From the NCBI GenBank assembly GCA_963819215.1, contig CAWFVK010000018.1, positions 3,158-67,157 of the forward strand: a stretch of 64,000 bases of DNA, given 5' to 3'. Below, one piece after another: positions 5,556 through 55,015 of this stretch; positions within the stretch are counted from its first letter, which is position 1; the number at the start of each line of letters is the position of its first letter. This DNA comes from an uncultured Actinomycetota bacterium (GTDB lineage: Bacteria; Actinomycetota; Actinomycetes; Prado026). The notes under the pieces are model-generated. The model searched no databases, had not been told where the DNA came from, and saw only the letters and a list, made by a program, of their open reading frames with translations. The translations under genes and the position numbers were made by a program.

Positions 5556-5636
5556 CCTGAGAAGTCCTGTCCAGGGGTCCATCGGCGATTCGTTCCGGTG
5601 GGTCGGGGCGGGTAGAGCCTGATCGAGAGGCGTCGG

Positions 5637-7076
5637 TCAGAAGGCGGGGCGCCAGGCGGGTCGTCCCAGAGGCCGAGCTCGCGCTCGGCGGCGGCCCCGA
5701 CGTGGAAGGCCGTGACGTCGTCGTACGGACGGGCCACGACCTGGATCCCGGTGGGGACGCCGTTGGAGGCTCGACCCGACGGCACGGTGAGCACGGGGTG
5801 GCGGCTGGCGATGTTGAAGACCGGGGTGAGCGCCGCGAAGATGTACAGCTCGACGTGCTGCACCGGCGACCGTGATGCCGTGTCGGTGTAGTCGTCGCCG
5901 GCGACGAAGCCCGTGGTGCCCGAGCGTCGGGCAGATGAGGGCGTCGTGGTCGGCGAAGACGTCGGCGAGCGCGAGGTGCACCTTCGATCTCCCGCGTCAT
6001 GCCCGGTGTAGACGCTGGCCGTCTGCAACGCGGCCGATGGACTTCGCGAGGAACAGCCGGGTGTAGTCCATGAAGCGCGGGTCGTCAGGCTCGGCGACCT
6101 CGCTCATCGAGGGCCCCATGATCGAGCCGTAGTGCACGAGCGCCGCCTCGACGTCACCGCGTGCCGGGAGAGCTCGACCGTGACCTCCTCGACCATGCGC
6201 CCCGGCCTGCCGCAGCGCGTCGGCGAAGGCCCGGGTGTTGGCCTCGACCTCGGGCGTCGATCGGGAAGTCGCCGAGCGTGACGCGCGAGCGCGATCCGCA
6301 GCCCGCGCACGTCGCCGAGGTCCTCGGGGATCGGCAGCGCGGGCAGGGAGACGTGATCGACCGGGTGCTGGCCCTGGATCACGTTGTGGAGCAGCGCGAC
6401 GTCGGCCACGGTGCGGCCCAGCGGCGCCGTCGTGGCAGTAGGTGTCGAGGTTGAACGGTGGCAGCGCCGGCACCCGACCGTACGGCGGCTTGAAGCCGAC
6501 GACGCCGTTGAGCGAGGCAGGGATCCGGATCGAGCCGCCGATGTCCGAGCCGCTCGGCGAGGTACGCCGTTCCTGAGGCGAGCGCAGCACCCGAACCGCC
6601 GGAGGACCCACCGGGGCTGTAGTCCGGGTTCCACGGGTTGCGGGTGATGCCCCACAGGTCGGAGTGGGTGAAGCGCGGCGCAGCAGAACTCGGGCGTCGT
6701 CGTGCGAGCGTGGACGATCGCGCCGGCAGCCAGCACCCGCTCCGGCACCGGGTGGGTCTCCTCGGCGACCCAGCCCTCGGTCAGCAGCGACCCGAAGCGC
6801 ATCGAGCGCCCAGCGATCGGCTGCTCCTCCTTGAGCACCACCGGGCAGTCCCTCGAGCGCTCGGGCCGCGACCCCTGTGCCGGCATAGCGTTCCGCCGCC
6901 GCCACGGCCGCCGCGCGGTAGTCCTCGTGGTCGCGCTCCAGCAAGGCGTTGACGGTCGGCTCGACCACGTCGGCGCGCGAGATGACGGCCTCGAGTGCCT
7001 CGAGCGGGGAGAGCTCCCGGCGGCGGAAGGCGCGCAGGAGCTCGGTGGCGCTCAGGTAGTGAAGGTCGGTCAACAT
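5637..7076 (-). pseudogene. Amidase (amidase-signature family), multiple frame breaks
   Basis: ATG at 7076 (MLTDLHYLSATELLRAFRRRELSPLEALEAVISR). AS-family core fragments SDIGGSIRIPASLNGVVGFKPPYGRVP and TIPSGRASNGVPTGIQVVARPYDDVTAFHVGAAAERELGLWDDP sit in different frames (ORFs 5997-7076, 6104-6886, 5027-6028). Confidence 0.75.
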
Positions 7077-7206
7077 CGTCTCCCCGGCTCGTCGGTGGGC
7101 CGAAGGTATGCGCAGCCAACACCGTCGTCAATAGTCTTGACATGATCGTTGCCTAAGTCGTCGAGTCGTCGTTACATTGCGGGAACGCCCACGCCTTGGA
7201 GGACGC

Positions 7207-19798: not shown

Positions 19799-20087
19799 CG
19801 TCACGTCGACCACCGCCGGTCCCTCGACCTGCCCGGCGCACGGTTCCGCGGCCGGCTCGCAGGCAGTATGTCGCACGCCGGGAGGGCGCACCCGGGAGGG
19901 GCAAAAGCCATGTATCTGACGCCGGGCTGGCAGCTTGCTCCGTTCGCGGTCAGTCGTTCGGGTGGAGTTTCCAGCCGGTGGGGTGCACTCCGGTCCCGGC
20001 CAAGGTGAACGGCCGGTGAATGACCTACGGTTCGCGTTGACCCGCGGCGACCAGCGCCCCGGTGGCGTCGTGAACCTGGGAGATCCC

Positions 20088-23000
20088 GTGCGTGCAGGTC
20101 GTCGGTCGGCACTCGCGCCGCTGCTCGTTGCCTCCACCGTGCTGGCAACCCTCGCCGCGGCGATAGCGCCAGGCACGGCGATGGCCGCGACGCCGTCAGC
20201 CCAGCCTGCACAGGCGTCGATCGTGTCCACGGTCCCTGCCTCGACCTCGCCCAACATCAACGACGGCGCCACCAACAGCCTCACGCAGGTCGGGTCGAGG
20301 ATCATCGCCGGCGGGTCCTTCACCAGCGTCAGCCCCGCGGGAGTCACCGACGGCTCACAAGCCGCCGCACGGACCGACGTGCTGGCCTTCGACGCGACCA
20401 GCGGCGTCCTGGATGCCGGCTTCCACCCCGTCCTCGACGGCACCGTCTACGCCGTGACCCCGGGCCCGACGCCCGACACGGTCTACCTCGGTGGCGCCTT
20501 CAGCACCGTCAACGGGGTCGCGGCCAAGAGCATCGCCCTCGTCAGCACGGTGACCGGCGCGATCGTCCCTGGCTTCACCGCGCCGAAGATGAACGGCATC
20601 GTCTACACCGCCCGCCTCTCCCTTGGTCGCCTGTACCTCGGCGGCTCGTTCACCGTGGTGGGCGGCGTCTCGCACGAGGGACTGGTCACCCTGACACCGG
20701 CGACCGGCGCGGTGGACCCCTTCATGGCTGTCCAGCTGACGGGGCACCACAACTACACCGGCAAGCCCGGTCAGGCGAACGGCGCGGTCGGGCCGCGCAA
20801 GCTCGCCATCAGCCCCGACGGCACCCTCGCGATCGTCATCGGCAACTTCAAGGAAGCCAACGGGGTCGTCTATGACCAGATCGTCCGCCTCAGGCTGGAC
20901 GGCGCGACCGCGACCGTGGACAGCACCTGGAAGACCTCCGCCTACACCGCGGCGTGCTTCGCCGCCGCCTTCGACACCTACATGGAGGACGTCGACTTCG
21001 CCCCGGACGGGTCCTACTTCGCGGTGGGCGCGACCGGGGGCTCGGGAACGAACACCGACGGCAGCAACTCGCTGTGCGACAGCGTGGCCCGGTGGCAGAC
21101 CGCTGCGACCGGTAGCAACGTGCGCCCCGTCTGGGTCGACTACACCGGCAACGACACACCCTCGTCCGTCGCCGTCACCGGCCCGGCGGTCTACGTCGGC
21201 GGGCACCAGCGCTGGATGAACAACCCGCTCGGCGCCGACAACGCGAACCTCGGTGCCGTCCCGCGTCCGGGCATCGCGGCGCTCGACCCGGTGTCGGGCG
21301 TCCCGCTCAGCTGGAACCCGGGACGCAACCCGCGTGGCGCCGGTGCCGGCGCGCTGCTCGTCACCAGCACGGGCTTGTGGGTCGGCAGCGACACGACCTG
21401 GATCGGCAACAGGCTCTCCTACCGCGGCCGCGTCGCGTTCTTCCCGCTCGCCGGCGGCGCCCCCGCGCCTGACTACTCGATGGACCAGGTGCCGGCCAAC
21501 GCCTACCTGGCGGGGCAGCTCACGACGACGAGCACCACCAACGTGCTCTACCGGGTGAACGCGGGCGGCCCCACGCTGCAGGCCATCGACGGCGGCCCCG
21601 TCGTGGCAGGGCGACACCACGAACCCGGGCCCGTACCGGACCTCGGCGCCGACGACCGGAACTGTGGGCTACCCCCCGGTCACCGCTCTGGCTGCCAGCG
21701 TGCCCGCTAGCACCCCCGCCGGGATCTTCAGCTCCGAGCGCTGGGACCCGGGCACCAAGGGCGACGGCAGCGAGATGCAGTGGTCGTTCCCGGCCACGGC
21801 CGGCCAGCACGTCGAGGTCCGTCTCTACTTCGCCAACCGGTGCTCATGCACGGATGCCGTCGGTGACCGGGTCTTCGACGTCGCTGTGGACGGCGCGACC
21901 GTCCTGAACCACTACGACATCGTCGCTGACGCAGGCGACCAGACGGGGACGATGAAGGCCTTCGACGTGACCGTGCCCGGTACCGGCGCGATCACCGTGG
22001 GCTTCACGCACGAGACCCAGAACCCGCTGGTCGACGGCATCGAGATCATCAACCAGGACGCCCCGACCCCCACCCCGCCGGCCGGCGGGTCGCTGCTCCA
22101 GCGCCCGTTCTACGGCACCAGCTCAGGGACGACGACCACGGTGTCGAGCTCCTACCCCTGGTCGTCCGTGCGCGGCGCCTTCATGGTCGGCGGCTGGCTC
22201 TACTACGGCTCGACCGACGGCAACCTCTACCGCAGCACGTTCGACGGCACGACGGTGGGCGCCGCGAACCTCGTCGATCCCTACAACGACCCGGCGTGGG
22301 CGAACGTCCTGACCGGTTCCGGGCAGACCTATCGCGGCGTCAAGCCGAGCCTCTACGGCGGGGAGATGCAGAACGTCACGTCGATGTTCTACTCGGCCGG
22401 AAAGCTGTACTACACGCTCTACGGTCAGCCGAACCTGTACTCCCGCTCGTTCAGCCCCGAGTCGGGCATCGTCGGCGAGGACGAGGCCAGCGTGGCAGGG
22501 GTCAACTTCAGCAACACCGCCGGCGCGTTCCTGTCCGGCAGCACGCTCTACTACGACAACAGCACGGACGGCGTCCTGCACAAGGTCGCCTTCGCGGCCG
22601 GCGTCACCAACCCAGCCACCGACGTCCCGATCGCCGACGGGCAGGACTGGCGTGCCCGAGGCCTGTTCCTCTTCGGCTCGCTCACCTCGACGACCGCCGT
22701 GTTCACCAGCAGCTGCGTGGCCATGACCTGCACGTTCGACGGCAGCACGTCCACCCCGCTCGGTCGGCTCAGCTACTCCTGGGACTTCGGCGACGGCAGC
22801 ACCAGCACGCTGGCCACCCCGACCCACCTGTTCTCCGTGGCCGGCGCGCACACCGTCACCTTGACCGTCACCGACAGCAGCTCGAACACCTCGAGCGTCA
22901 GCCACGGGGTGAGCGTCCAGCCGCCGAACGCACGCTTCACCGCGGTGACTCCGTGCCGGGTCTTCGACACCCGGGGGACGCCGGGCACCTGCACGGCCGC

Positions 23001-24105
23001 CCCCGCGGCGCACAAGGCCCAGCTCGGGACAGGCACCACCAAGAACGTGAAGATCGCCGGTGTCGGCGGCGTCCCGGCGAACGCGACCGCGGTCGTCCTC
23101 AACGTCACTGCGGTCAACGCGACCGCCACCACGTACATCACCGTCTCCCCCGGCGGCAAGGCGCGGCCCATCGTCTCGAACCTCAACGTCAACAGCTCGG
23201 CGCCGGTGCCGAACCTGGTGACCGTGAGCCTCGGCGCCGACGGCTCGCTGAACTTCTACAACTACGCCGGCAGGGTCGACCTGCTGGCCGATCTCGCCGG
23301 TTACTACAGCCCCACGGCGGGCAACGGGTACACACCGGTCGCTCCCTGCCGCGTGTTCGACACCCGCGGGAACGCCGGCTCGTGCACGTCAGCACCGGCC
23401 GCGACCTCGACGCCGATCGGTGCCGGCGGGATCAAGAACGTCATGATCGCCGGGGTGGGCGGCGTCCCCGCCAACGCCACCGCGGTCGTCCTCAACGTCA
23501 CTGCCGTCAACGCGACCAAGGCCACCTACGTCACTGTCTGGCCGGGCGGCCATGCCAAGCCGGAGGCATCCAACCTCAACGTCCACTCGGCGCTGCCCGT
23601 GCCGAACCTGGTCGTCGTGCCGCTGGGCCCCGACGGGTCGATCGACGTCGGCAACTACATCGGGACGGTCGACGTCCTCGCCGACCTCGCCGGCTTCTTC
23701 TCCCCGGCCTCCGCCTCGGGCTTCCACGCCGTGACCCCGTGCCGGATCATCGACACCCGCGGGACGACGGGCTCGTGCCCCGCCGCCCCGGCGGGTACCA
23801 AGCGGGCACTCACCAGTGGTGGAACCGTCTCGCTGCGCGTGGTCGGCGTCGGTGGGATCCCCACCTCGGCAACAGCGCTGGTGCTCAACGTGACCGCGGT
23901 GGGCGCCACCAACCGGACCTACCTCACCGTGTTCCCGGGGTCGACGGTCCGGCCGGTGGCGTCGAACCTGAACATCGCGTCCGCGGCGCCGATCCCCAAC
24001 CAGGTCGTGGTCCCCGTGGGCATCGACGGCAGCATCAGCGTGTTCAACGCGTTGGGCAGCGTCAACGTCCTCGCCGATCTGGCGGGCTACTACTCGACGA
24101 GCTAG
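20088..24105 (+). pseudogene. Large secreted multidomain carbohydrate-binding protein, paralog 1 (propeller-like, malectin, propeller-like, PKD, 3x unnamed repeat), one frame break near 21600
   Basis: GTG at 20088 ([34 protein letters not shown] signal peptide). It is co-linear with the intact paralog at 26968-30972. The frame changes right after ...LQAIDGGP (ORF 19935-21710) and resumes as WQGD...GYPPVTALAASVPASTPAGIFSSERWDPG (ORF 21664-24105). Confidence 0.8.
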
Positions 24106-24135
24106 CCAGGCAGGCGGGTCAGCCGGAGGGCGCCG

Positions 24136-24154
24136 GTAGGGTAGCCTTACCTAA
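24136..24154. promoter_or_regulatory. IdeR/DtxR-type iron box candidate upstream of bfd-bfr
   Basis: GTAGGGTAGCCTTACCTAA matches the mycobacterial IdeR consensus TTAGGTTAGGCTAACCTAA at 15 of 19 positions by my count. It lies 47 nt upstream of the bfd GTG. Confidence 0.5.
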
Positions 24155-24200
24155 CTGCCGCCCGAGCTGGGCGCCCCGTCGCCCGGAGTCGAACGCTTCC

Positions 24201-24407
24201 GTGATCATCTGCCACTGCGCCGTCGTTACAGATCGCGATGTCGCCGCTACGGTTGCCACGGGTTCGACGACGCTCGCTGCCGTGTGTCGGAGCACCTCCG
24301 CCGGCCGCGCCTGTGGCCGGTGCCTTCCGACGCTCAAGGCCATGCTCTGCGAGCAGTGCCCTCGCGCGGATCTGTCCCAGCCGGAGGTCGCGCATGCAGC
24401 CCGTTAG
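24201..24407 (+). CDS. bfd: Bacterioferritin-associated ferredoxin (BFD-like [2Fe-2S]-binding domain)
   Basis: VIICHCAVVTDRDVAATVATGSTTLAAVCRSTSAGRACGRCLPTLKAMLCEQC carries the CxC...CxxC pattern. GTG at 24201. The gene overlaps the bfr start. Confidence 0.7.
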   Translation: MIICHCAVVTDRDVAATVATGSTTLAAVCRSTSAGRACGRCLPTLKAMLCEQCPRADLSQPEVAHAAR

Positions 24408-24876
24408 CCCCCGTGTGGTCGAGCTCCTCAACGACGCCCTCACCTTCGAGCTCACCATCACGAACACCTACTTCGTGCACGCACGGATGCTCGACAGCTG
24501 GGGCATCGGTTCCCTGGGCAAGGCGTTCTACGAGCTCTCCATCGACGAGATGAAGGACTCCGACGCCCTGATCCAGCGCATCCTGCTCTTCGACGGCCAC
24601 CCGAACGTCCAGCGTCTGGGCGCCATCACCATCGGCGAGACGGCCCAGGAGATGCTGACCCTCGCGCTCGAGAGCGAGCGCCGCGCGGTCGCTCAGTTCA
24701 ACGCCGGCGCCAAGGAGTGCCATGAACTGGGTGACCACGGCACCGCCTCGATCTTCGAGGAGATGGTGCGCTCCGAGGAGACCCACGTGGACTGGTTCGA
24801 GGCGCAGCTCGGCGCGATCGAACGGGTAGGTGTCCAGCAGTACCTCGCTGCGCAGCTGGCGACGGGGACGCCCTAG
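24394..24876 (+). CDS. bfr: Bacterioferritin
   Basis: GGAGG precedes ATG at 24394. Sequence VVELLNDALTFELTITNTYFVHARMLDSWG...DEMKDSDALIQRILLFDGHPN...ESERRAVAQFN...EEMVRSEETHVDWFEAQL carries the ferroxidase-centre E/H pattern. Confidence 0.9.
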   Translation: MQPVSPRVVELLNDALTFELTITNTYFVHARMLDSWGIGSLGKAFYELSIDEMKDSDALIQRILLFDGHPNVQRLGAITIGETAQEMLTLALESERRAVAQFNAGAKECHELGDHGTASIFEEMVRSEETHVDWFEAQLGAIERVGVQQYLAAQLATGTP

Positions 24877-25918
24877 CCCGAGCGGCTCGCTTCGGTGCCT
24901 TCGGCGAGCCAGCGGACCACGTCCGAGGCCGGTTCGTCGCTGGCGTGCCGATATCCCGTGCCGGCCCACAGGTTGATGCCGTCAGCGTCCGCGGCCCGGG
25001 TTGCCGCCGCGCGCAACGGCACCGTCAGCAGGTGGATCGCCGGGTAGCCAAGGGGAGCCGTCGCGGTGTGCTCGTCCGTGAACCGGTTCCGGAGCGCTCG
25101 CGCCGGCCGGCCGGTGAACGCCCGCGTCACGACCGTCCCGTCACGGGCAGGGTCGACCAGCGCGTCCTTGTGGATGGGGCGTGCCCCGCTCTCCGGCGTA
25201 CGGAGCAACGCCGTCCCGACCAGCACTGCGTTGGCCCCTGCCTTCATCGCGTCCCTGACGGCGGCCGGCCCGCTGATGCCGCCGGCAGCCAGCAGCGGCA
25301 GCCCGCTGACCGACCTGACGGCTGCTACCAGCGCCGCGGTGTCGGTGTGCCGGTTCGGCGTCTGCGGGGTGGTGGTCCCGCTGTGCCCGCCGGCCGCGGC
25401 GCTCTGCACCGCGAGCGCATCCACCCCGACGGCCTCGGCGGCCCGCGCCTCGTCGACCGTGGTCACCGTCGCGACCACCTGGCTGCCCGCCGCCTGCAGG
25501 CGCGCGACCACCGCGGCTGGCGGGAGGGCGAACGTGAAGCTCACGACCGCGACCGGGTCGTCGACCAGGAGCTCGACCTTCTCCCTCCACCAGTCGTCGT
25601 ACCCCGCACCCAGGCCAGCCAGCGCCGGCAGCTCGACCTCGTAGCGCTCAGCCTCAGCGCTGAGCTCGTCCGCGTAGCGCTGAGCTCCGCCTGGCTCGGC
25701 GTGGTGCCTCCAGGCAGGAACACGTTCACGCCGAAGTCGCGGCAGCGCTCCCTGGTGGCTGCGACCTGCTGCTGCATGCCCTCCGGCGTCAGGTAGCCGG
25801 CGGCGAGGAAGCCGAACCCGCCCGCCGCCGACGCAGCCGCCACCAGCGCCGGGGTCGACGGGCCGCCCGCCATCGGAGCAGCCACCACCGGTACCCGCAC
25901 CGAGCCGAGCGACCACAT
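24873..25918 (-). pseudogene. Nitronate monooxygenase (2-nitropropane dioxygenase, NMO family), one frame break near 25690
   Basis: ATG at 25918 (MWSLGSVRVPVVAAPMAGGPSTPALVAAASAAGGFGFLAAG) is in one frame. The rest (AQRYADELS...AAGGHSGTT...LLAAGGISGPAAVRDAMKAGANAVLVGTALL) is in ORF 24873-25916. Confidence 0.8.
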
Positions 25919-25980
25919 GGCAGACCTCCTCGAGGCTGGCCTCCTGCCGGCGGGATCCTGTCGACGGCTAGGGTCTGAGC

Positions 25981-26919
25981 GTGCGCTACCAACCCCTCGG
26001 AACCTCAGGTCTCACCGTCTCCGTCGTCGGCCTCGGATGCAACAACTTCGGCGGTCGGATCGACCTCGAGGCGACCCGCGCCGTGGTTGACGCCGCGATC
26101 GACGAGGGCATCACGCTGTTCGACACCGCGGACATCTACGGGGAGGACAGCGGCTCGGAGCGCACCCTCGGCGAGGTGCTGAAGGGCCGCCGCGACCAGG
26201 TCGTCCTGGCCACCAAGTGGGGGCACCAGAACTACGACCTCGGGTACGGCCCGGCTGCCGGCGCCAAGGGCGGTCGTTCGTACATCCGCCGGGCCGTGAC
26301 CGAGTCCCTGCGGCGGCTGCAGACCGACTGGATCGACCTGTACCAGCTCCACACACCTGACCCGGTCACGCCCATCGAGGAGACGCTGGCCGCCCTCGAC
26401 GAGCTCGTCCAGGAGGGCAAGGTGCGCTACGTCGGGAGCTCGAACCTCACGGGCTGGCAGCTCGCCGACGCCGCCCACCTCGCCGGGGCCGGCGGCACGA
26501 CGCCCTTCATCTCCGCCCAGAGCGAGTACTCCTGGCTGAACCGCTCGGTGGAGGCGGAGGTCTTGCCCGCCTGCGCGCACTTCGGGCTGGGCTTCCTGCC
26601 GTACTTCCCGCTCGCGATGGGCCTGCTCACCGGAAAGGTCACCAGGGCGAACGGCATCCCCGAGCAGACCCGCTTGGCCGAGCGCCAGCACTACGTCACC
26701 GACGCGCGCCTCGACACGGTCGAGGCGCTCGACGCCTGGGCCGTCGCGCACGACCGCTCCCTGCTCGACGTCGCCATCGGCGGCCTGGCCACCAAGCCGG
26801 GAGTCAGCTCGGTCATCGCTGGTGCCACCAAGCCGGAGCAGGTCCACGCGAACGTGGCCGCCGGCAGGTGGCAGCCGACCGCGGACGAGCTCGCCGAGCT
26901 CGACGCGCTCACGGCTTAG
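25981..26919 (+). CDS. Aldo/keto reductase
   Basis: GTG at 25981. Sequence LGTSGLTVSVVGLGCNNFG...DTADIYG...LATKWG...DLYQLHTPD...IAGATKPEQV is a classic AKR pattern. Confidence 0.9.
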   Translation: MRYQPLGTSGLTVSVVGLGCNNFGGRIDLEATRAVVDAAIDEGITLFDTADIYGEDSGSERTLGEVLKGRRDQVVLATKWGHQNYDLGYGPAAGAKGGRSYIRRAVTESLRRLQTDWIDLYQLHTPDPVTPIEETLAALDELVQEGKVRYVGSSNLTGWQLADAAHLAGAGGTTPFISAQSEYSWLNRSVEAEVLPACAHFGLGFLPYFPLAMGLLTGKVTRANGIPEQTRLAERQHYVTDARLDTVEALDAWAVAHDRSLLDVAIGGLATKPGVSSVIAGATKPEQVHANVAAGRWQPTADELAELDALTA

Positions 26920-26926
26920 CCACGCT

Positions 26927-26960
26927 GGCTCATCCGGTCCGGCGCCCGACCGGCTGAGCC
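26927..26960. terminator. Hairpin between convergent genes (candidate bidirectional terminator)
   Basis: GGCTCATCCGGTC-CGGCGCCC-GACCGGCTGAGCC forms two 6-bp stem segments with one T/C mismatch. It lies between the AKR stop (26919) and the paralog-2 stop (26968). There is no U-tract. Confidence 0.4.
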
Positions 26961-26967
26961 CGCGCGG

Positions 26968-29900
26968 TCAGCTCGCGGAGTAGTAGCCCGCGAGGTCGAC
27001 GACCGCGTCGACGTCGCCGATGTAGTTGCCGATGCTCACCGTTCCGTCAGCGCTCACCGGGACGGTGACGAGGTTGGCCACCGGGGACGCAGACGACACG
27101 TTGAGGTTCGACACGACTGGCTTGACGGTGCCGCCGGGGAAGACCGTCAGGTAGGTCGCCCTCGAGGCGTTGACGGCCGTCACGTTGAGCACCACCGCGG
27201 TGACCGAGGCGGGCACCGATCCGACCCCAGCGACATGGAACGTCCTGACCTGGCCCGAGCCGATGGACTGGTCGACCCCGGCCGGTGCGCCAGGACAGGT
27301 TCCGGTGGTGCCGCGGGTGTCCAGGATCCGGCACGGGCCGGTGGCGGTGTAGCCGCTGGCCGAGGTCGGGGCGAAGTAGCCGGCGAGGTCAGCCAGCAGG
27401 TCGACCGAGCCGGCGTTGTTGTAGAAGCTGACGGTCCCGTTCGCGGCCAGCTGCACGACGACGAGGTTGGGCAGCGGCGCCGCCGAGCCCACGCTCAGGT
27501 TGGAGACCACGGGTCGGGCCGTCCCGCCGGGGAAGACCGTCTCGTAGGTCGAGCGGGTGGCCCCGACCGCGGTGAGGTTGAGGACGACGGCTGTCGCCGT
27601 GGCAGGCACCCCTCCCACCCCGGCGATCTTCACCGTCAACGTCTGTCCCGCGCCGAGGGTCTCCCTGGTGGCGGCCGGCGGCGTCGAGCAGCTGCCGACG
27701 GTGCCGCGCGTGTCGAAGACCCGGCAGGGCGCGACCGCGGAGTACCCCGAGCCCGTCCCCGTCGCGTAGTAGCCCTGCAGGTCGGCGAGCAGGTCGACGT
27801 TCCCGGTCGCGTTGCCGAGGTTGACGACACCGCCGGTGCCCACGGGCACGACGACCAGGTTCGCCACCGGGGCGGGTGAGCTGACGTTCAGGTTCGACGC
27901 CGTGGGCTTGGGCTGCCCGGCCGGCCAGGCGGTGATGTAGGTGGAACGCGAAGTCGCGTTCACCGCGGTCACGTTGAGCACCACGGCGGTGGCACCGGCA
28001 GGCACGCCCCCGACACCCGTCACCTTGACCGCCAGCACTCCAGCCGGACCGACCGGCGCCTTGCTGCTGGCCGAGCCTCCGGGGCAGCCGGCGGTCGCAC
28101 CCCTGGTGTCGTAGACGCGGCACGGCGTCACCGCGGTGTACGTCGCGGCGGGCGGCGCCGGGGAGACGGAGTGGCTCGCGGTAGCGGTCTGGGCGCCCGT
28201 GCCGGTCACCGTCAAGGTCACCGTGTGCGCACCGGCAGCGGTGTACCTGTGGGTCGGGGCGACACCGGTGCCGGTGGTGCCGTCACCGAAGGCCCAGCTG
28301 TAGGCGGTCGCGCCGGTCGAGGTCGAGGCGTTGAACGAGCAGGACATCGCGGTGCACGTGCTGGTGAACGCTGCGGTCGGAGGCACGACCGCCGCCTTGC
28401 CGAGGAACAGACCCCGCGTGCGCCAGTCGTTGCCGTCGAGCGCCGGTCCGCTGACGACGGTGTCCGTCGCCGGGTCCGTGCTGCCGTCGGCGAACGCGAC
28501 ACGGTGCAGGTTCCCGTCCGCGCGGCTCGCGTAGTAGAGCGAGCTGCCCGAGAGGAACGCGCCGGCGATGTTGCTGAGGTCCACGCCGTCGGTGCTCGAC
28601 TCGTCCTCGGTGACGATCCCCGAGTCAGGGTTGAAGGACCGCGCGAAGAGCTCGGAGTCGCCGAGCATCGTGTAGTAGATCTTGCCGCCGGAGTAGAACA
28701 TCGAGGTCGCGTCCTGGATCTCGCCGCCGTAGAAGCCCGGCGCCGCACCCTGATACGTCTGGCCGGAGCCCGTCTGCACGTTCACCCAGGCTGGGTCGTC
28801 GTAGGGGTCGACCTTGGTGGCCGGCCCGAAGGTGGTGCCGTCGAAGCTTCGGCGGTAGAGGTTGCCGTCGGTCATGCCGTAGAACAGCGTGCCGCCGACG
28901 GTGAACGCGCCACGCACCGAGGACCAGGCCGTGCCGGTTCCGCCGACCGTGGAGGTCGGGCCGGCAGCGGTGCCGTTGAACGCTCGCTCGAGCAGCGAAC
29001 CGGCGGGCGGCGGTGGCGGGACGGGGGCGTCCTGGTTGATGAGCTCGATGCCGTTGACCAGCGGGTTCTCGGTCTCATGGGTCCAGTCGATGCTGACCTG
29101 GCCGGTTGCCGGCACGGTGACGTTGAAGGCCTTCATCGTGCCCGTCTGATCACCGACGTCCGCCACGATGTCGTAGTGGTTCAGGACCGTCGTGCCGTCC
29201 ACGGCGACGTCGAACACGCGCTGGCCCACCCCGCTCGTGCCGTCGTAGCGGTTCGCGAAGTAGAGCCGGACCTGCACGTGCTCGCCGACCGTCGCGGGGA
29301 ACGTCCACTGCATCTCGTCGCCGTCACCGTTGGATCCCGGGTCCCAGCGCTCGGAGGAGAAGATCCCGGACGGCGTGGTCGCCGGCACGGTGCTGGCGAT
29401 GGTGGCGACGGGGCCGTACCCGGCCGTCTGGCTGTCACCGTTGTGGTACGGGCTGCCGTCGGTGGGGTCGCCCTGCCAGTCCGGCCCGCCGTCGATCGCC
29501 TGGATCGTGGACCCACCCGCGTTGACCCGGTAGAGCACGTTGGTGCTCGCGGTCGAGGTGAGCTGGCCCGCGAGGTAGACGTTCGCCGGCAAGGCCGTCG
29601 TCGCGACGCTCGGCGTCGGCGTTCCCCCCGCGAGAGGGAAGAACGCGATGCGGCCGCGGTAGTACTTGCGGTTGCCGATGTACTGCGTGTCGCTCCCGAC
29701 CCACAGGCCCGTGCTGGTCGCGAGCAGGGCGGCGGCGCCCGAGCCGCGCGGGTTACGCCCGGGGTTCCAGGACATGGGGACGCCGGAGACAGGGTCGAGC
29801 GCACCGAGGCCGGGCCGCGGGACCGCGCCCGGGCCGGCGTAGTCGTAGCCGTCCGGGTTGTTGAGCCAGCGCTGGTGGCCGCCGACGTAGACCGCGCTGC

Positions 29901-30972
29901 CGGTGACCGCGACCGAGGCGATGGTGTCCTGACCGGAGTAGTCGGCCCAGGTCGGCTGGACGTTGTCCCCCGTGGCCGAGGTCTCCCATCGCGAAGCGCT
30001 GTCGCACAGCGAGTTGCTGCCGTCGTTGTTCGTCCCGCTGCCACCGGTGGCCGCCACCACGAAGTACGAGCCGTCCGGGGCGAAGTCGACGTCCTGCATG
30101 TACGTGTCGAAGGCGTCGCTGAAGCACAGGGCCGTGTACTCCTGCGTGTTCCAGTTCGGGTCGATCGTGGCCGCGGGCTTGCTGCCGATGAGGATGTTGA
30201 CGATCTGGTCGTGCAGGGTCCCGTTGGCGTCCTTGAAGTTGCCGATGACGATGAGCCGGCTCCCGTCGGGTGAGACCGCCATCTTGCGAGCGCCGACGCC
30301 GCCGATCGCACCGGACCCGCTGTCGTTGTGGTGCCCGGTCAGCTGGACGTCGAGGTACGGGTCGAGGGCGCCCGTCGTCGGGTTCAAAGTCACGATGCCC
30401 GAGTGCGCCACGCCCGCGACCTTGCTGAAGTCGCCGCCGACGAACAGGTGGCCACCTGAGAGCTTCACCGTGTACGCGATGCCGTCCATGGTCGGTGCGG
30501 TGAAGCCAGGCACCCGGGCGCCGGTGATCGTGCTCACCAGCGCGAGGCTCTTGGACTTGACCCCGTCGACGGTGGTGAACGCACCTGCCAGGTAGACGGT
30601 GTCGGCCACCGGGCCCGGAGTCACCTGCCACACGGCACCGTCCAGCGACGGCACGAAGCCGGTGTCGAGCTTGCCGGTCGTCGCGTCGAAGGCGAGCGCC
30701 TCGGTCCGCGGCACCGCCTGCGAACCGTCGGTGACCCCGGCCGGACTGACGTTGGTGAAGGTCCCGCCCAGCACGATCCGGGTGCCGACCTGGGCGATGC
30801 CGAGGGTCTGGCCGTCATTGATGTTGGGGGTGCCCGCCATCGGCACCGCGGCGACGATCGAGGCCTGCGCGGTAGCCGCCATCGCGGTTCCGGATCCCAC
30901 CGCTGTGACGGTGAGCGCGCCGACCGCGATGATGGCCACGGGCAGGGACGTCAGTCTGGTTCGTGCACGCAT
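26968..30972 (-). CDS. Large secreted multidomain carbohydrate-binding protein, paralog 2 (signal peptide, propeller-like, malectin, propeller-like, PKD, 3x unnamed ~130-aa repeat), intact
   Basis: AAGGGGAG precedes ATG at 30972 (MRARTRLTSLPVAIIAVGALTVTAVGSGTAMAA). The malectin region is NVLYRVNAGG...IDGGPDWQGD...SSERWDPG...RLYFANRY..GQRVFDVAVDG..VLNHYDIVAD...NGIELINQ. The PKD region is CSFNASTSTGATAYSWAFGDGTTGTGVAPTHRYTAAGAHTVTLTVT. Three C-terminal repeats start Y(T/S)AV(T/A)PCR(V/I).DTRG. The 409 ORF residues upstream of 30972 are read-through and are rejected. Confidence 0.85.
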   Translation of the reverse strand: MRARTRLTSLPVAIIAVGALTVTAVGSGTAMAATAQASIVAAVPMAGTPNINDGQTLGIAQVGTRIVLGGTFTNVSPAGVTDGSQAVPRTEALAFDATTGKLDTGFVPSLDGAVWQVTPGPVADTVYLAGAFTTVDGVKSKSLALVSTITGARVPGFTAPTMDGIAYTVKLSGGHLFVGGDFSKVAGVAHSGIVTLNPTTGALDPYLDVQLTGHHNDSGSGAIGGVGARKMAVSPDGSRLIVIGNFKDANGTLHDQIVNILIGSKPAATIDPNWNTQEYTALCFSDAFDTYMQDVDFAPDGSYFVVAATGGSGTNNDGSNSLCDSASRWETSATGDNVQPTWADYSGQDTIASVAVTGSAVYVGGHQRWLNNPDGYDYAGPGAVPRPGLGALDPVSGVPMSWNPGRNPRGSGAAALLATSTGLWVGSDTQYIGNRKYYRGRIAFFPLAGGTPTPSVATTALPANVYLAGQLTSTASTNVLYRVNAGGSTIQAIDGGPDWQGDPTDGSPYHNGDSQTAGYGPVATIASTVPATTPSGIFSSERWDPGSNGDGDEMQWTFPATVGEHVQVRLYFANRYDGTSGVGQRVFDVAVDGTTVLNHYDIVADVGDQTGTMKAFNVTVPATGQVSIDWTHETENPLVNGIELINQDAPVPPPPPAGSLLERAFNGTAAGPTSTVGGTGTAWSSVRGAFTVGGTLFYGMTDGNLYRRSFDGTTFGPATKVDPYDDPAWVNVQTGSGQTYQGAAPGFYGGEIQDATSMFYSGGKIYYTMLGDSELFARSFNPDSGIVTEDESSTDGVDLSNIAGAFLSGSSLYYASRADGNLHRVAFADGSTDPATDTVVSGPALDGNDWRTRGLFLGKAAVVPPTAAFTSTCTAMSCSFNASTSTGATAYSWAFGDGTTGTGVAPTHRYTAAGAHTVTLTVTGTGAQTATASHSVSPAPPAATYTAVTPCRVYDTRGATAGCPGGSASSKAPVGPAGVLAVKVTGVGGVPAGATAVVLNVTAVNATSRSTYITAWPAGQPKPTASNLNVSSPAPVANLVVVPVGTGGVVNLGNATGNVDLLADLQGYYATGTGSGYSAVAPCRVFDTRGTVGSCSTPPAATRETLGAGQTLTVKIAGVGGVPATATAVVLNLTAVGATRSTYETVFPGGTARPVVSNLSVGSAAPLPNLVVVQLAANGTVSFYNNAGSVDLLADLAGYFAPTSASGYTATGPCRILDTRGTTGTCPGAPAGVDQSIGSGQVRTFHVAGVGSVPASVTAVVLNVTAVNASRATYLTVFPGGTVKPVVSNLNVSSASPVANLVTVPVSADGTVSIGNYIGDVDAVVDLAGYYSAS

Positions 30973-31028: not shown

Positions 31029-31215
31029 GGCGAAACGCTAAGTGGCCAGCAGGTGCGAGCGTGAGCCGACCCGAGAATTCGGATGAACGGCGGCCCGGTC
31101 CGACCGAAAGGTTGAGCCCGGACGGACGAACGCCGCTACCCATCGTGCCTACCAGTGGTGCACTCGACCGCACGGGCACCATGCTGAGCCTGGACGACAG
31201 GGAGGGGGCAGCCGC

Positions 31216-39266: not shown

Positions 39267-40025
39267 TCAGATCTTGAGCCGTCGGAACACCGGGCGTGGC
39301 AGGTGGCGCAGGCCCGACATCACGAACCGCAGCTGACCGGGGACCCACACGATCTCGCGCCCGGTCCGCAGCGCCTTCACCACGGCGTCCGCCACCGCAG
39401 CGGGCGTGGTCGCGAGCGGAGCGTCCGGCAGCCCTGCCGTCATCTTGCTGCGCACGAAGCCTGGCCGCACGATGACCACGCGCACGCCACTGCCCTGCAG
39501 CGAGTCGCCGAGCCCCTGCGCGAAGGCGTCGAGCCCGGCCTTGCTGGAGCCGTACACGAAGTTCGACCGACGCGCGCGCTCACCGGCGACCGACGACAGC
39601 ACCACCAGGGCGCCGTGCCCCTGGGCCTTGAGGGCGTTGGCCGCGCGCAAGCCGAGGGACAGCGCTCCGACGTAGTTGACCGACGCGACCTCGACCGCGC
39701 GGTCGGGGTCCGCCTCGTCCTGCTCCTGGTCTCCCAGCAGCCCGAACGCGAGCAGCACGACGTCGACGTCACCGCCGGCGAACAGCGCCTTGACCGTCGC
39801 GTCGTGGGTCTGCGTCGCGGCGGCATCCAGGCCGATCGTGGTGACGTCCGTCGCCCCGGCGGCGAGCACCTCGGAACGCGCAACCGCCAGGGCGTCGGTG
39901 TCACGACCGGCCAGCACCACCCGCCGGGTCCGGCCACGGGCGAGCTGGGTGGCGATGGCGAGCGCGATCTCCGAGCTGCCGCCGAGCACGGCCAGGGACT
40001 GCGGTTCCCCGAGGGCGTCGATCAC
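39267..40025 (-). CDS. dprE2: Decaprenylphospho-beta-D-erythro-pentofuranosid-2-ulose 2-reductase (SDR)
   Basis: 252-aa SDR: LGGSSEIALAIA (TGxxxGxG-like), YGSSKAGLD (YxxxK). GTG at 40025 overlaps the dprE1 stop (GTGA). The gene sits in the ubiA-dprE1-dprE2 order. Confidence 0.8.
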   Translation of the reverse strand: MIDALGEPQSLAVLGGSSEIALAIATQLARGRTRRVVLAGRDTDALAVARSEVLAAGATDVTTIGLDAAATQTHDATVKALFAGGDVDVVLLAFGLLGDQEQDEADPDRAVEVASVNYVGALSLGLRAANALKAQGHGALVVLSSVAGERARRSNFVYGSSKAGLDAFAQGLGDSLQGSGVRVVIVRPGFVRSKMTAGLPDAPLATTPAAVADAVVKALRTGREIVWVPGQLRFVMSGLRHLPRPVFRRLKI

Positions 40026-41351
40026 AGCGAGAGCCTCCTGGACTGGTCGGACACGAACCGGTGGTCAGGATCGACCCGCTCGCGCAGGCGGCGCCATGCG
40101 TCGAGCCCAGGGTAGAACGCAGGCAGCAGCTCCGGTCGCAGCCGGGAGTCCTTCGCGAGGTAGACCGAGCCGCCGGCGGCCGCGACCAGCTCGTCGATGT
40201 CGTCGAGCACGGCCCCGAGCCCCGCGGTCGCAGCGGGGACGTCGAGGGCGAGCGTCCATCCGGGTCGAGGGAACGACAGCGGACCGGGCGAGGCCGCACC
40301 GAACCGCTTCAGCACCGCGAGGAAGGACGGCACCCGCCCCGCCGACAGCCGCCCCAGGACGGTCCGCAGCGCGACCTCGTCCGGCACCACGCACTGGTAC
40401 TGCAGGAAGCCCCTCGGCCCGTAGAGCCGGTTCCAGCCGCCGACCGAGTCGAGCGGGTGGAAGAAGGGCGCGATGGCGTGCAGCGCGCCCACCTGTCGCC
40501 GCGGGGCCTTCCGGTACCAGGCCTCGTTGAACGCCGCGATGCTCGCCCGGTTCAGCAACCCGCCCGGCACGTAGGGCGGTGCCGAGGCTCGCTGTGCTGG
40601 CCGGTACGCCGGATGCCTGTCGCCGAGCTCCTCGGCACTCGCGTGCTCGCCCGAGGTGATGACTCCGCGGCCGGCACGTGAGCCGGTCGCCAGGCAGTCG
40701 ATCCAGGCGACGCTGTACCGGTGGCGGTCCTCGGCCGCGACCAGCCGCTCGAGCAGGGCATCGAGATTGCCTGCGCGCTCGGTGTCCACCGACATCATCG
40801 GGGTGGGCGCGGGCAGCAACCGCAACGTCACCTCGGTGACGACGCCGGTCAGGCCCATCCCGCCGAAGGTCCCCCAGAACAGCTCCGGGTCGGACGTCCG
40901 GGCTGACGGTCTGCACCGAGCCGTCCGCGAGCACGAGCACGAGGCTGGACACGTGGCTGGCGAACGAGCCGTCGCGGTGGTGGTTCTTGCCGTGGACGTC
41001 AGCAGCCACCGCCCCGCCGAGCGTCACGAAGCGCGTGCCCGGGGTGACAGGGACGAACCAACCGCACGGCACGATCACCCGCAGGAGCGCGTCGAGACTG
41101 ACGCCGGCCTGCGCGCGGACGATGCCGAGCTCGAGGTCGAGCTGCAGGATCCGGTCGAGCCCGGTCAGGTCGAGGACGGTCCCGCCCGCGTTCTGCGCGG
41201 GATCGCCGTAGGACCGGCCCAGACCACGCGCGACCGCTCCGCGCGGTGCGGTGCTCGCGAGCAGCTCAGCCACCTGGGCAGGCTCGGTCGGACGCAGGAC
41301 CTCCGCCGCGGTGGGTGCGGTCCGGCCCCAGCCGGCGAGGAGCTCAGACAA
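40022..41351 (-). pseudogene. dprE1: Decaprenylphosphoryl-beta-D-ribose oxidase (FAD-binding), one frame break near 40895
   Basis: The N-terminal half ([12 protein letters not shown]...[10 protein letters not shown]...[24 protein letters not shown]) is in ORF 40065-41351. The break falls between VSPDV and [23 protein letters not shown]. The C-terminal half is in ORF 40022-40858 (...YLAKDSRL...). The break looks like one extra C in GTCCGAC. Confidence 0.8.
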
Positions 41352-42225
41352 CGTTGGCTGCCAGGACGAAGGTGACCAGCCAGGCCAGCCCGATCAGCTG
41401 CAGACCCCGATCACGGAGCACGACATCCTCCGGCGAGCCCGCCTTCCCGCTGTCGACGTCGACCGCGTACCGCAGGATCCCGAGCACGAAAGGCGCCACC
41501 GAGATCTGCGCCCACGAGACCGCCCCGCGGGTCGCGCCGACGTCGAACGACCACAACGCGTAGGCGAAGATCGTCGCCGTCGCGGAGACGCTCCACACGA
41601 AGCGGAGGTAGCTCGCGGAGTACAGCGTCACCGAGCGCCTGGCAGCCGCGCCGTGCTCGGCGACCGCCATCAGCTCCGCGTAGCGCTTGCCTGCCACCAT
41701 GAACAGCGACCCGAACGACGCGACGAGCAGGAACCACTGGGAGAGCGAGATCCCGGTCGCCGCCCCACCGGCGATCGCCCGCAGCAGGAAGCCTGCCGCG
41801 ACGACGGCGAGGTCGAAGACGGGCTGGTGCTTGATGCCGAGCGAGTACGCCACCGTGATGACGAGGTAGATCGCGAGCACGAGGGCCAGGTGCGAGTTGG
41901 CCAGCGTCCAGCCCAGGACCAGGGCGAGGACGGCGAGCACCACCGCGCTGATCAGCGCGGCTGCCGGTGCGAGCGCCCCGCTGGCGATAGGGCGGTCGCG
42001 CTTGGTCGGGTGCGCCCGGTCGGCATCGGCGTCCACGAGGTCGTTGACCAGGTAGCCGGCGCTCGAGGCCATGCAGAACGTCACGAACGCGACGACCACG
42101 TGCCGCAGGACCGTGCCGTGGAGCAGCGTGCCGTCGGCCAGCGGTGCCGCGACCACGAGCACGTTCTTGACCCACTGCCGGGGCCGGGCGGCACGCAGCA
42201 GGGCCGTCGGCCCTCGGTCCGCCAC
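41344..42225 (-). CDS. Decaprenyl-phosphate phosphoribosyltransferase (UbiA prenyltransferase superfamily)
   Basis: AAGGAG-N8-GTG at 42225 ([21 protein letters not shown]). Motifs [26 protein letters not shown] and multiple TMs are present. It is followed by dprE1 and dprE2. Confidence 0.8.
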
Positions 42226-42635
42226 CCGCCACACTCCTTGATCGTCTGCTGCCTGTCGGTCCGTCGTCGACCTGCTGGCCGCCTTCTGCTCCCGGCCTCG
42301 CGTGCGTCGTGCGCTCGACCTTATCGAGGACCACGCTCGGCACCGGCGCGCTTGACGGCCACCGGACGACATTCCTCGCGCTGGCCGGTGACAGCGTTGC
42401 TAGGCAACGTCAACAGGTATTTCTGCGCATTCGCTGTGAACGCCGGGGCAACAAGATTCGGCCACCTCGGATCGCCGTCCCGACCGCACCGCGTTCGGAG
42501 GCGTGCCCCGGACCTACGCGGTGGACTCCTCGCCGACCGTCTTGGCCGCGGCGCGCGCCATGGCCCAGGACCCCTACCTCAACCCCAGGAGTGACCTGAA
42601 CCCCTGACAGGCGAGGCGTCGTCGTCGGCTGCGCG

Positions 42636-45115: not shown

Positions 45116-45652
45116 TCAGCGCCCGACCCCGGACGTCTCGACGTCGTACACGTGGTGCACCAGATCGTGCAGCATGTAGCGGCCGAGGCTCCCGAGGGTG
45201 AACACCGAGCCGTCCGACCGGCGTCCTGGACGGGCGAGGTCGGCGGCGCTGGCGCCCTCGAACAGGCTGGCCAGCACGTCCGCGTTCGCCGCGATGGCCG
45301 CACCGACGACGGCGGGCGCCTGCTGCCCGTACGGCACCTCGGCGGCGGTGATGTCCGGGTCCCAGTCCGCGAAGAGCGGGTCGTCCTCCTCGAGGATCCG
45401 GCGGGCCCGCAGCGTGAACAGGGACAGCACGTCACGCACGTGCTCGCCGTACTCGACCGGCGACCACACCAGGGGCTCCGGACGGACCGAGACCAGCGGG
45501 TCGTCGGCAAGGCCGTCGAGCAGCGCCTGCCAGGTCCGGCCGACGGATGCGATCAGCGGGCCGAGCTCAGCCTCGTCGAGATCGCGGACGTCGTAGCCGC
45601 ACTCCTGGCACGGCTCGACGAGCACGAAGGTCCAGTCCCTGCCATCACCCAC
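45116..45652 (-). CDS. DinB-family (DinB_2 / mycothiol-dependent-like) protein
   Basis: 178-aa ORF with the His pattern EYGEHVRD ... MLHDLVHHVYD typical of the DinB_2 four-helix bundle. GTG at 45652. Confidence 0.6.
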   Translation of the reverse strand: MGDGRDWTFVLVEPCQECGYDVRDLDEAELGPLIASVGRTWQALLDGLADDPLVSVRPEPLVWSPVEYGEHVRDVLSLFTLRARRILEEDDPLFADWDPDITAAEVPYGQQAPAVVGAAIAANADVLASLFEGASAADLARPGRRSDGSVFTLGSLGRYMLHDLVHHVYDVETSGVGR

Positions 45653-47414: not shown

Positions 47415-47560
47415 GCAGCTCTCCGACGGGATCAGGGGAAGACCACCGAGCGGGGCCCGCGGCGGCCGTAAGCGTTTACAGACTCTGCCGGACCTGGCGC
47501 CCAGCGTCCAGCCGCAGACCCGAACTGGGCAACAGCAGCCGCACGTGGCACTGTCCGGTC

Positions 47561-54925: not shown

Positions 54926-55015
54926 GGTGGCGTGTCCGAGCGGCCGAAGGAGCACGCCTCGAAAGCGTGTGAGGGGGCAACTCCTCCGTGGGTTCAAATC
55001 CCACCGCCACCGCCA
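54926..55015 (+). tRNA. tRNA-Ser (anticodon CGA), class II with long variable arm, CCA encoded
   Basis: The hand-folded cloverleaf is: acceptor GGTGGCG/CGCCACC; anticodon stem CACGC/GCGTG; loop CTCGAAA; variable arm GAGGGGGCAACTCCTCC; T arm GTGGG-TTCAAAT-CCCAC; discriminator G; then CCA. It is nearly co-linear with E. coli tRNA-Ser(CGA). Confidence 0.9.

Follow-up and report, generated by a model that had tools for sequence, protein, structure and literature searches.

Propellers with Rax2 C-terminal or DUF5122 ('delta-60 repeat') blades are represented in Pfam by two families for which, to our knowledge, no function is established. Tandem jelly-rolls of the carbohydrate-binding module (CBM) type, namely domains IV/V of Vip3, the CBM22 tandem of Xyn10C, the CBM35 of Xyn30D, the CBM51 of GH98, the Bd2133 tip and phage fiber or CenC-like proteins, are 8-stranded sandwiches that occupy terminal positions in secreted proteins. 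Malectin is a lectin of the endoplasmic reticulum, and malectin-like ectodomains are known from the plant CrRLK1L kinases ANX1/2 and FERONIA. Bacterial glycosidases carry malectin, as CBM57, in an accessory role (PMC4444583). Modules resembling all of these come together in two paralogous genes on a 64,000-nt stretch of DNA from an uncultured Actinomycetota bacterium (hereafter the window): gene A, on the + strand at 20088-24105, and gene B, on the - strand at 26968-30972. We find it very probable that A and B descend from an ancient duplication within a widespread family of secreted multi-domain proteins, and that their geometry is incidental. The pair itself would thereby be ordinary, old paralogues of a common secreted family lying tail-to-tail by chance, and the wider interest lies in its parts. 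One is a family of more than 2400 proteins, none of them studied, that has an invariant candidate site for catalysis or binding and whose core of 7-bladed propeller, malectin and repeat domain is predicted with confidence. The other is a 130-aa module that recurs in ~30,000 protein clusters, almost always as triplets, fused to proteases, Ig-like arrays and propellers.

Paralogy and domain architecture of A and B

Gene B is an intact coding sequence of 1334 aa (ATG at 30972, stop at 26968-26970), as seen in the open reading frame (ORF) list and its translation. In BLASTP it aligns with a conceptually repaired A from the signal peptide to the last residue, with 63.5% amino acid identity across 1346 columns. 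The nucleotide sequences are 71.9% identical across 3946 nt by blastn, and a repeat search of the window recovered the two genes as inverted-repeat arms (20208-24099 and 27760-30870) that are 72-83% complementary. End-to-end paralogy, proposed in an earlier sequence-only reading of the window, is thus borne out, and the peptides quoted there (...[ML]NNP, NVLYRVNAGG, SSERWDPG, RLYFANR, SW[DA]FGDG, DLAGYYS[TA]S and GTAMAA) are all present in both proteins. The accompanying description of a pair of ~1330-codon genes fits B, with its 1334 intact codons, but not A, which spans 4018 nt and switches frame. The ~1330-codon + strand protein is not an intact ORF and exists only once one base is conceptually removed, a point which that reading had overlooked.

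B begins with an apparent signal peptide (residues 1-32, MRARTR...GTAMA-AT; 30877-30972, - strand, as are all the domains of B), recognized by eye from its basic n-region, hydrophobic core and AxA site. It continues with a predicted ~7-bladed β-propeller at residues ~40-470 (29563-30855), which carries the motifs G-G-H-x-R-W-x-N-N and W-N-P-G-R-N-P-R-G, and a malectin (CBM57-like) domain at residues 479-636 (29065-29538; Pfam PF11721, E=4.5e-14). A third, all-β domain with three G-x-L-[FY]-Y...D-G-x-L-x-R-x-F repeats follows at residues ~655-860 (28393-29010), then a PKD domain at residues 870-935 (28168-28365; Pfam PKD_4, E=2.1e-14, with PKD matches in the PDB), and finally three jelly-roll modules at residues 945-1076, 1077-1207 and 1208-1334 (26971-28140), delimited by module alignment and structure prediction. 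In A, on the + strand, the signal peptide, the propeller and the start of the malectin domain are encoded in the 5' segment of the gene (20088-21599). The remainder of the malectin domain extends to ~22008, the third domain covers ~22066-22683, the PKD domain 22711-22896 and the three modules 22936-23328, 23329-23721 and 23722-24102; malectin and PKD were assigned by Pfam on the repaired protein and the modules by alignment. The malectin profile scored 53.2 bits in B and 42.5 bits in repaired A against a cut-off of 23, and PKD_4 (PF18911/PF00801), with its WxFGDG core, 53.8 and 59 bits respectively against a cut-off of 27. Beyond these Pfam matches the NCBIfam search of A and B returned nothing real, and PDB sequence and profile searches found PKD and malectin only.

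For residues 36-860 of B, an AlphaFold2 (AF2) model that drew on 66 homologues (pLDDT 93, pTM 0.88) contains seven sets of 3-4 antiparallel strands at residues ~56-446 (pLDDT >90), the malectin sandwich and an all-β domain of ~205 residues. A Foldseek search of the PDB with this model retrieved human malectin (9ikp, TMt 0.72, rmsd 3.6) and the ANX1/2 and FERONIA ectodomains (E~1e-11), together with generic tandem propellers, LRP2/6 and WD40 proteins, which are mostly non-enzymatic; no enzyme was prominent among the matches. The likeness to the malectin/CBM57/CrRLK1L class therefore consists of a Pfam match above cut-off and a predicted fold; the difference is that in A and B the domain is one internal part of a 1334-aa bacterial protein that is predicted to be secreted and has no attached glycosidase or kinase. 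The propeller, malectin and PKD domains (the latter two by Pfam above cut-off) and the three C-terminal modules of the sequence-only reading are all recovered in this way. Its second propeller-like region of ~290 aa is not, for the model places there the ~205 aa of all-β repeats. This third domain drew no sequence matches in Pfam or the PDB, and it is retained in the 855-aa minimal members of the family.

The propeller is less readily classified from the pair itself, in which DUF5122 (PF17164) repeats remain sub-threshold (15 bits in B and 20.9 bits in A, cut-off 27). Relatives that align with A and B from end to end exceed the cut-offs both for DUF5122 (36.2 bits in P0005 and 33.9 bits in P0087) and for Rax2 (PF12768; 30.4 bits in P0030, cut-off 28.8). 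As several relatives pass these thresholds, the propeller of A and B appears to belong to the DUF5122/Rax2 repeat class, an assignment taken at the level of the family. The shared blade repeat motif lies in the first half of the A/B propeller. However, blades 5-7 differ from those of the Rax2/DUF5122 propellers in bearing GGHxRWxNN and WNPGRNPRG, which are specific to the A/B family. Across 67 family sequences the invariant residues (two Cys, GGHxRWxNN, a D, an R and WNPGRNPRG) cluster in these same blades. In B they include H366, R368, W369, N371, N372, D377, R386, W402 and R406. In the model their motifs fall in inter-strand loops, a placement that would suit a pocket on the top face of the propeller.

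The three C-terminal modules of ~130 aa, which the sequence-only reading had likewise recognized, measure 127-132 aa each, the later copies sharing 53-59% identity with the first; comparisons within and between A, B and their metagenomic relative P0002 (see below) gave pairwise identities of 49-74%. The module is not represented by any model in Pfam or NCBIfam. An AF2 model of modules 2-3 of B (pLDDT 93.2, pTM 0.77) has 8 strands per module, and a Foldseek search with it gave weak matches (E 2e-5 to 1e-2, identity at most 15%, TM at most 0.51 for the single-domain match 8ok3) to Vip3 domains IV/V, a CBM22 tandem, CBM35, CBM51, a GH101 accessory domain, Cry1Ac domain III and the Bd2133 fiber tip. 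In a viral library the fold matches were tail-fiber and CenC-like proteins. The 8-stranded sandwich, its tandem arrangement and its terminal position are thus common to the A/B module and the CBM-type jelly-rolls. What sets the A/B module apart are its own motifs, P-x-R-x-x-D-T-R, A-V-x-L-N-x-T and S-x-L-N, its lack of a Pfam or NCBIfam model and its occurrence in nearly always exactly three copies. An exhaustive profile search detected the module in 30,132 cluster representatives at E<=1e-3 and in 19,835 at E<=1e-10, and 130 of the 150 best matches had exactly three copies. Its partner domains are of the secreted or surface type (matrixin, PKD, BNR-like, He_PIG, SdrD_B, CarboxypepD_reg and TIG), and the named matches, from Streptomyces, Kitasatospora, Acidimicrobiia, Mycobacteriales and Pedococcus, are all annotated as 'hypothetical protein'. 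We regard it as a candidate new domain family, and as a very widespread and promiscuous extracellular module to judge from these partners. Knowledge of the ligand of the triplet would annotate very many actinobacterial surface and secreted proteins together.

The family and the age of the duplication

With full-length B as the query, we recovered more than 2400 homologues of the propeller-malectin core in genomes and metagenome-assembled genomes of Actinomycetota, among them Jatrophihabitantaceae, Frankiaceae and Mycobacteriales. Their annotations go no further than 'PKD domain-containing' or 'malectin domain-containing carbohydrate-binding protein', and lengths of 855, 1150 and 1650 aa are typical. 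Because most of them match the N-terminal 62-72% of B, the family core appears to be made up of the propeller, malectin and repeat domain, followed by a variable C-terminus. Members from Jatrophihabitantaceae (P0032), Frankiaceae (P0050) and Mycobacteriales (P0069) have the same N-terminal 860 aa at 50-60% identity, share the invariant propeller motifs and usually continue into a PKD domain. Unlike A and B, most family members have another domain at the C-terminus or additional copies of PKD or malectin. Some relatives carry two malectins. Within this propeller-core family the triple jelly-roll was encountered only in A, B and P0002. The pair had been put forward as lineage-specific, which cannot be upheld for a core with so many homologues across Actinomycetota and for a family in which paralogue arrays are common; only the A/B sub-clade with its triplet is narrow.

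Orthologues of both genes lie side by side on a 6.5-kb metagenome contig, L038. It encodes an A-like protein, P0002 (3000-6341, + strand), whose gene call is N-terminally truncated and whose real start reads MRAGGRS, and a B-like protein of 674 aa, g1 (515-2539, - strand). These orthologues are arranged head-to-head, 460 bp apart, with no insert between them. In a neighbor-joining tree of 603 ungapped columns the pairing of A with P0002 had a bootstrap value of 1.00 and that of B with g1 one of 0.965, and the four formed a single clade (0.995). Given this pairing, the duplication that gave rise to A and B appears to be older than the split from the L038 organism. Both L038 copies lack the malectin domain and show an identical junction, LAGT..GGDTLR.R.F, with no high-identity tract around it; either parallel loss or ancient conversion between the paralogues could account for this.

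Local arrays of paralogues are found elsewhere in the family, with three in tandem at locus L001, two at L002 and three in Agromyces (L004), and neighboring paralogues at L122 and L124. At L122 (4301-6679 and 12684-14510) the neighboring paralogue has the same propeller with a ricin-B lectin domain replacing malectin, and adjoins Wzz. At L124 (1-2783 and 2961-5909) the neighboring paralogue has a PKD domain only, and a family member adjoins WecG and Wzy_C.

Glycan recognition or catalysis

The sequence-only reading presented A and B as surface or secreted glycan-binding proteins. This is a fair description of proteins that combine the look of exported ones with malectin, PKD and jelly-roll domains and no sortase signal, and it is from these features that we infer both export and glycan binding. 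A regular-expression search for LPXTG signals (L[PA]x[TSA]G) found none in A or B, both of which finish in a β-strand, ...DLAGYYS[TA]S, and Pfam, NCBIfam and PDB searches revealed no recognizable catalytic domain; both absences had been noted earlier and stand. We put it at slightly better than even that A and B are exported glycan-recognition proteins of an uncharacterized Actinomycetota family. They would be exported via the signal peptide and then either attached non-covalently or released. The propeller would represent the conserved functional head, binding or processing a polysaccharide, possibly that of the cell's own envelope or an exopolysaccharide; we read it as a head with swappable CBMs because the L122 paralogue joins the same propeller to ricin-B. 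The malectin domain would add carbohydrate affinity and the PKD domain could serve as a spacer. The triplet may act as a generic non-covalent anchor that binds carbohydrate or the cell surface and is reused in tens of thousands of secreted actinobacterial proteins.

We hold the explanation as a whole, which combines old paralogues, glycan recognition, an incidental layout and an artefactual frameshift in A, with moderate confidence, and several points weigh against it. The signal peptides of A and B were judged by eye alone. Searches of Pfam, NCBIfam and the PDB revealed no functionally characterized relative of the propeller at the sequence level, and a lectin and an enzyme are not separable on this basis. 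The fold matches of the jelly-roll modules are weak, with a best E-value of 2e-5, at most 15% identity and low TM. The neighborhoods of the relatives are heterogeneous, and the link to envelope polysaccharide comes from two loci, L122 and L124. The literature on DUF5122 and on Streptomyces proteins that combine malectin, PKD and propeller yielded no study of this family. Finally, the frameshift is physically present in the sole sequence at hand, and genome and metagenome scans found no second assembly of the organism.

A different view takes the propeller to be catalytic, as a polysaccharide lyase, hydrolase or modifying enzyme that would act on envelope polysaccharide or exopolysaccharide and constitute a new family of carbohydrate-active enzymes (CAZymes). 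In that case the malectin, PKD and triplet would serve it as CBMs and spacers, and A and B would be enzymes rather than lectins or adhesins. In blades 5-7, where the family is most strongly conserved, a cluster of His, Arg, Trp, Asn, Asp and Cys residues is indeed invariant, and CAZymes typically combine a conserved head with interchangeable CBM-type domains, here malectin, two malectins or ricin-B. The Wzz, Wzy_C and WecG neighbors at two loci and the accessory role of CBM57/malectin in glycosidases likewise count in its favor. However, searches of Pfam, NCBIfam and the PDB, the last by sequence and by profile, connected the propeller region with no catalytic family, and Foldseek gave only generic, mostly non-enzymatic propellers; we regard catalysis as possible, if doubtful. 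A bolder proposal would have the GGHxRWxNN/WNPGRNPRG site catalytic in a new CAZyme family that remodels envelope polysaccharide or exopolysaccharide, or else would make the triplet a hitherto undescribed pseudo-trimeric unit, formed by a single chain, that anchors to surfaces or glycans in more than 30,000 actinobacterial protein clusters. Taken jointly, these two alternatives seem to us improbable.

Frameshifts, convergent layout and other features of the window

Translation of A from a GTG at 20088 is in agreement with a ribosome-binding site, GGGAGA, and with the orthologous MRAGGRS start in L038. The 5' segment (20088-21599, + strand) comprises 504 codons and ends in a CCCC run at 21596-21599 (GGCGG-CCCC-GTCGTGG at 21591-21606). 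The 3' segment continues in the next frame at 21601-24105, with 834 codons and a stop, as seen in the translation and in frame 1 of the tblastn comparison. The 4018 nt from 20088 to 24105 are no multiple of 3, with one extra base at the C-run, and the ORF list splits the gene into 19935-21710 and 21664-24105 in differing frames. In tblastn B matches A in frame 3 at 20103-21599 (the first 497 residues, 66.7% identical) and in frame 1 from 21598, and the two arms of the inverted repeat go out of register by 1 base between 21598 and 21604. Deletion of one base from the C-run yields IDGGPSWQGD, colinear with IDGGPDWQGD of B, and both P0002 and B read straight through the homologous site.

Several further genes of the window are broken in a comparable manner. 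A 1-nt deletion near 25670-25690 (GAGCTC^AGCGC, with C in place of CC) interrupts the nitronate monooxygenase (NMO) gene (24873-25918, - strand; Pfam NMO), and the reading frame that covers profile positions 11-84 differs from that of positions 81-329. At 39270-42399 the - strand carries, in a row, a ubiA-like prenyltransferase gene, dprE1 and dprE2 of the decaprenyl-phospho-arabinose pathway. The FAD-binding N-terminus and the remainder of dprE1 lie in different frames that meet at 40883-40901 (...SPD-G-...). Actinomycetes that synthesize decaprenyl-phospho-arabinose cannot normally do without dprE1. An amidase gene (5640-7127, - strand) consists of at least 5 alternating frame segments, each of them good amidase sequence (TTPEF, GGSSGGS, GSDIGGSIRIP), and the peptide substrate-binding protein (SBP) gene beside it (4095-5636, - strand) is also broken by many frameshifts, giving a locally very high indel density at 4095-7127. 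Five other ORF junctions that were suspected of frameshifts proved to be ordinary boundaries of adjacent genes (TetR/β-lactamase, DinB/GH13, decarboxylase/cyclase, an unnamed ORF/deaminase and dprE2/dprE1); the internal frameshift of dprE1, at ~40.9 kb, sits further upstream than the last of these.

We consider the one-base frameshift of A to be probably an assembly indel, with both genes probably functional in the organism. This is because dN/dS is equal on either side of it and because further frameshifts affect the NMO, dprE1, amidase and SBP genes. A has also kept its promoter-proximal motifs and its ribosome-binding site. That A is instead a genuine and very recent pseudogene, with a +1 insertion in the C-run and only B functional, is unlikely, although the shift is there in the sequence, slippage at homopolymers is a common natural mutation and redundancy with the paralogue would make the loss tolerable. 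Against it stand a dN/dS of 0.35 between A and P0002 3' of the shift, compared with 0.31 5' of it and 0.34 for intact B and its orthologue, and the 834 codons 3' of the shift without a single stop. The frameshifts elsewhere in the window, one of them in the normally essential dprE1, also point to indels of the assembly rather than to decay. With indels this frequent, any pseudogene call from this contig requires read support.

We also looked for other records of these sequences. A scan of metagenome contigs with exact patterns around the shift of A that tolerated either CCC or CCCC gave 0 matches, and an exact-product look-up of gene B found nothing on record. A scan of genome contigs with B returned relatives of at most 43% identity and many PKD-only matches, the source organism and its close relatives not being among them. 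In a metagenome scan with an alignment of the C-terminal region the PKD motif swamped the results and nothing close was seen. The best database match of a GH13 α-glucosidase gene of the window (45648-47558, - strand) is 69% identical and comes from a metagenome, the named genera (Streptomyces, Amycolatopsis, Motilibacter) and Sporichthyaceae reaching at most 61%. Given that the best match is only 69%, the window appears to derive from a poorly sampled actinomycete lineage.

The 3' ends of A and B face each other, so that the genes form an imperfect inverted repeat of ~4 kb flanking ~2.9 kb. This insert begins with bfd, for a BFD-like [2Fe-2S] ferredoxin (24198-24407, + strand; Pfam Fer2_BFD, E=1.3e-9), and bfr, for a bacterioferritin/ferritin-like protein (24391-24876, + strand; Pfam Ferritin, E=3.3e-32), which overlap by 17 nt and qualify as a BFD-ferritin pair. 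They are followed by the NMO gene and by an aldo/keto reductase (AKR) gene (25981-26919, + strand; Pfam Aldo_ket_red, E=9.2e-67), whose stop is 48 nt from that of B. The outer neighbors encode an MFS transporter and a PAS-GGDEF-EAL protein, and both are oriented divergently to the paralogue beside them. The position of bfd-bfr, NMO and AKR between the two 3' ends had been correctly given, but the term 'cassette' is hardly apt for four genes oriented +, +, - and +, one of them frameshifted. Nor does the pair bracket an iron-storage and redox unit in any meaningful sense. None of the insert or flank genes was found beside the loci of the relatives, and the L038 pair is separated by 460 bp with none of them in between. 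An AKR at locus L123 was considered as a sign of synteny with the insert; at 32% identity it is not orthologous. The insert consists of unrelated housekeeping genes, and the convergent layout appears incidental, a probable outcome of local duplication and later rearrangement.

The sequence-only reading had supposed that this geometry would permit inversion of the insert by recombination or gene conversion between the copies. It is highly improbable that A and B are the arms of an invertible segment, or that they exchange sequence to diversify a surface protein. Besides the ~4-kb repeat around 2.9 kb, what speaks for exchange is that both L038 paralogues lack malectin with the same GGDTLR junction, which hints at an old event in that lineage. 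Set against this are the 72% nucleotide identity of A and B, a longest common exact word of 29 nt, and a duplication older than the species split. Synonymous divergence is uniform, with pS at 0.31-0.60 in every 60-codon window and at 0.40-0.54 per domain (0.40-0.50 without the short signal-peptide segment), and there is no tract of low divergence. A candidate conversion tract in the malectin region was rejected, as the higher nucleotide identity there comes from lower pN and not from lower pS. By Pfam, the genes in and next to the region (MFS, bfd, bfr, NMO, AKR and PAS-GGDEF-EAL) include no recombinase or invertase, and an inversion would yield chimeric genes and flip housekeeping genes. Returning to the frameshift of A, we find it hardly credible that the shift is programmed, by ribosomal +1 frameshifting or transcriptional slippage, since its location in a homopolymer inside a coding region is offset by the lack of an evident stimulatory element, by the continuity of P0002 and B at the homologous site without the extra base and by the shifts of unrelated window genes at non-homopolymer sites.

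Alignment of the regions upstream of A, B and the L038 orthologue revealed a common element. In A it is CCGTTCGCGGTCAGTCGTTCGG (19940-19961, + strand), 148 nt before the start, and in B CCGTCCGGGCTCAACCTTTCGG (31104-31125, - strand), 153 nt before the start, with 15 of 19 specified positions equal to those of A. An element of the form CCGTTCG-N7-CCGTTCGG is also seen 5' of the L038 orthologue (~2760-2790). Downstream of it, ~60 nt before the start (~20026 in A), a TAnnnT hexamer that resembles a -10 box is conserved as well. Within 3 mismatches the consensus matched only the copy of A in the window. This shared element may be an operator or promoter. A consensus scan for promoters and terminators gave 0 sites, such a consensus being uninformative for an actinomycete of 70% GC.

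Elsewhere in the window, an Rfam scan at gathering thresholds reported no family, tRNA included, while ARAGORN placed a tRNA-Ser(CGA) at 54926-55015 (+ strand). From ~60.8 kb onward no clear coding phase was seen, and GC content is 0.65 at 62001-64000, compared with ~0.70-0.73 window-wide.

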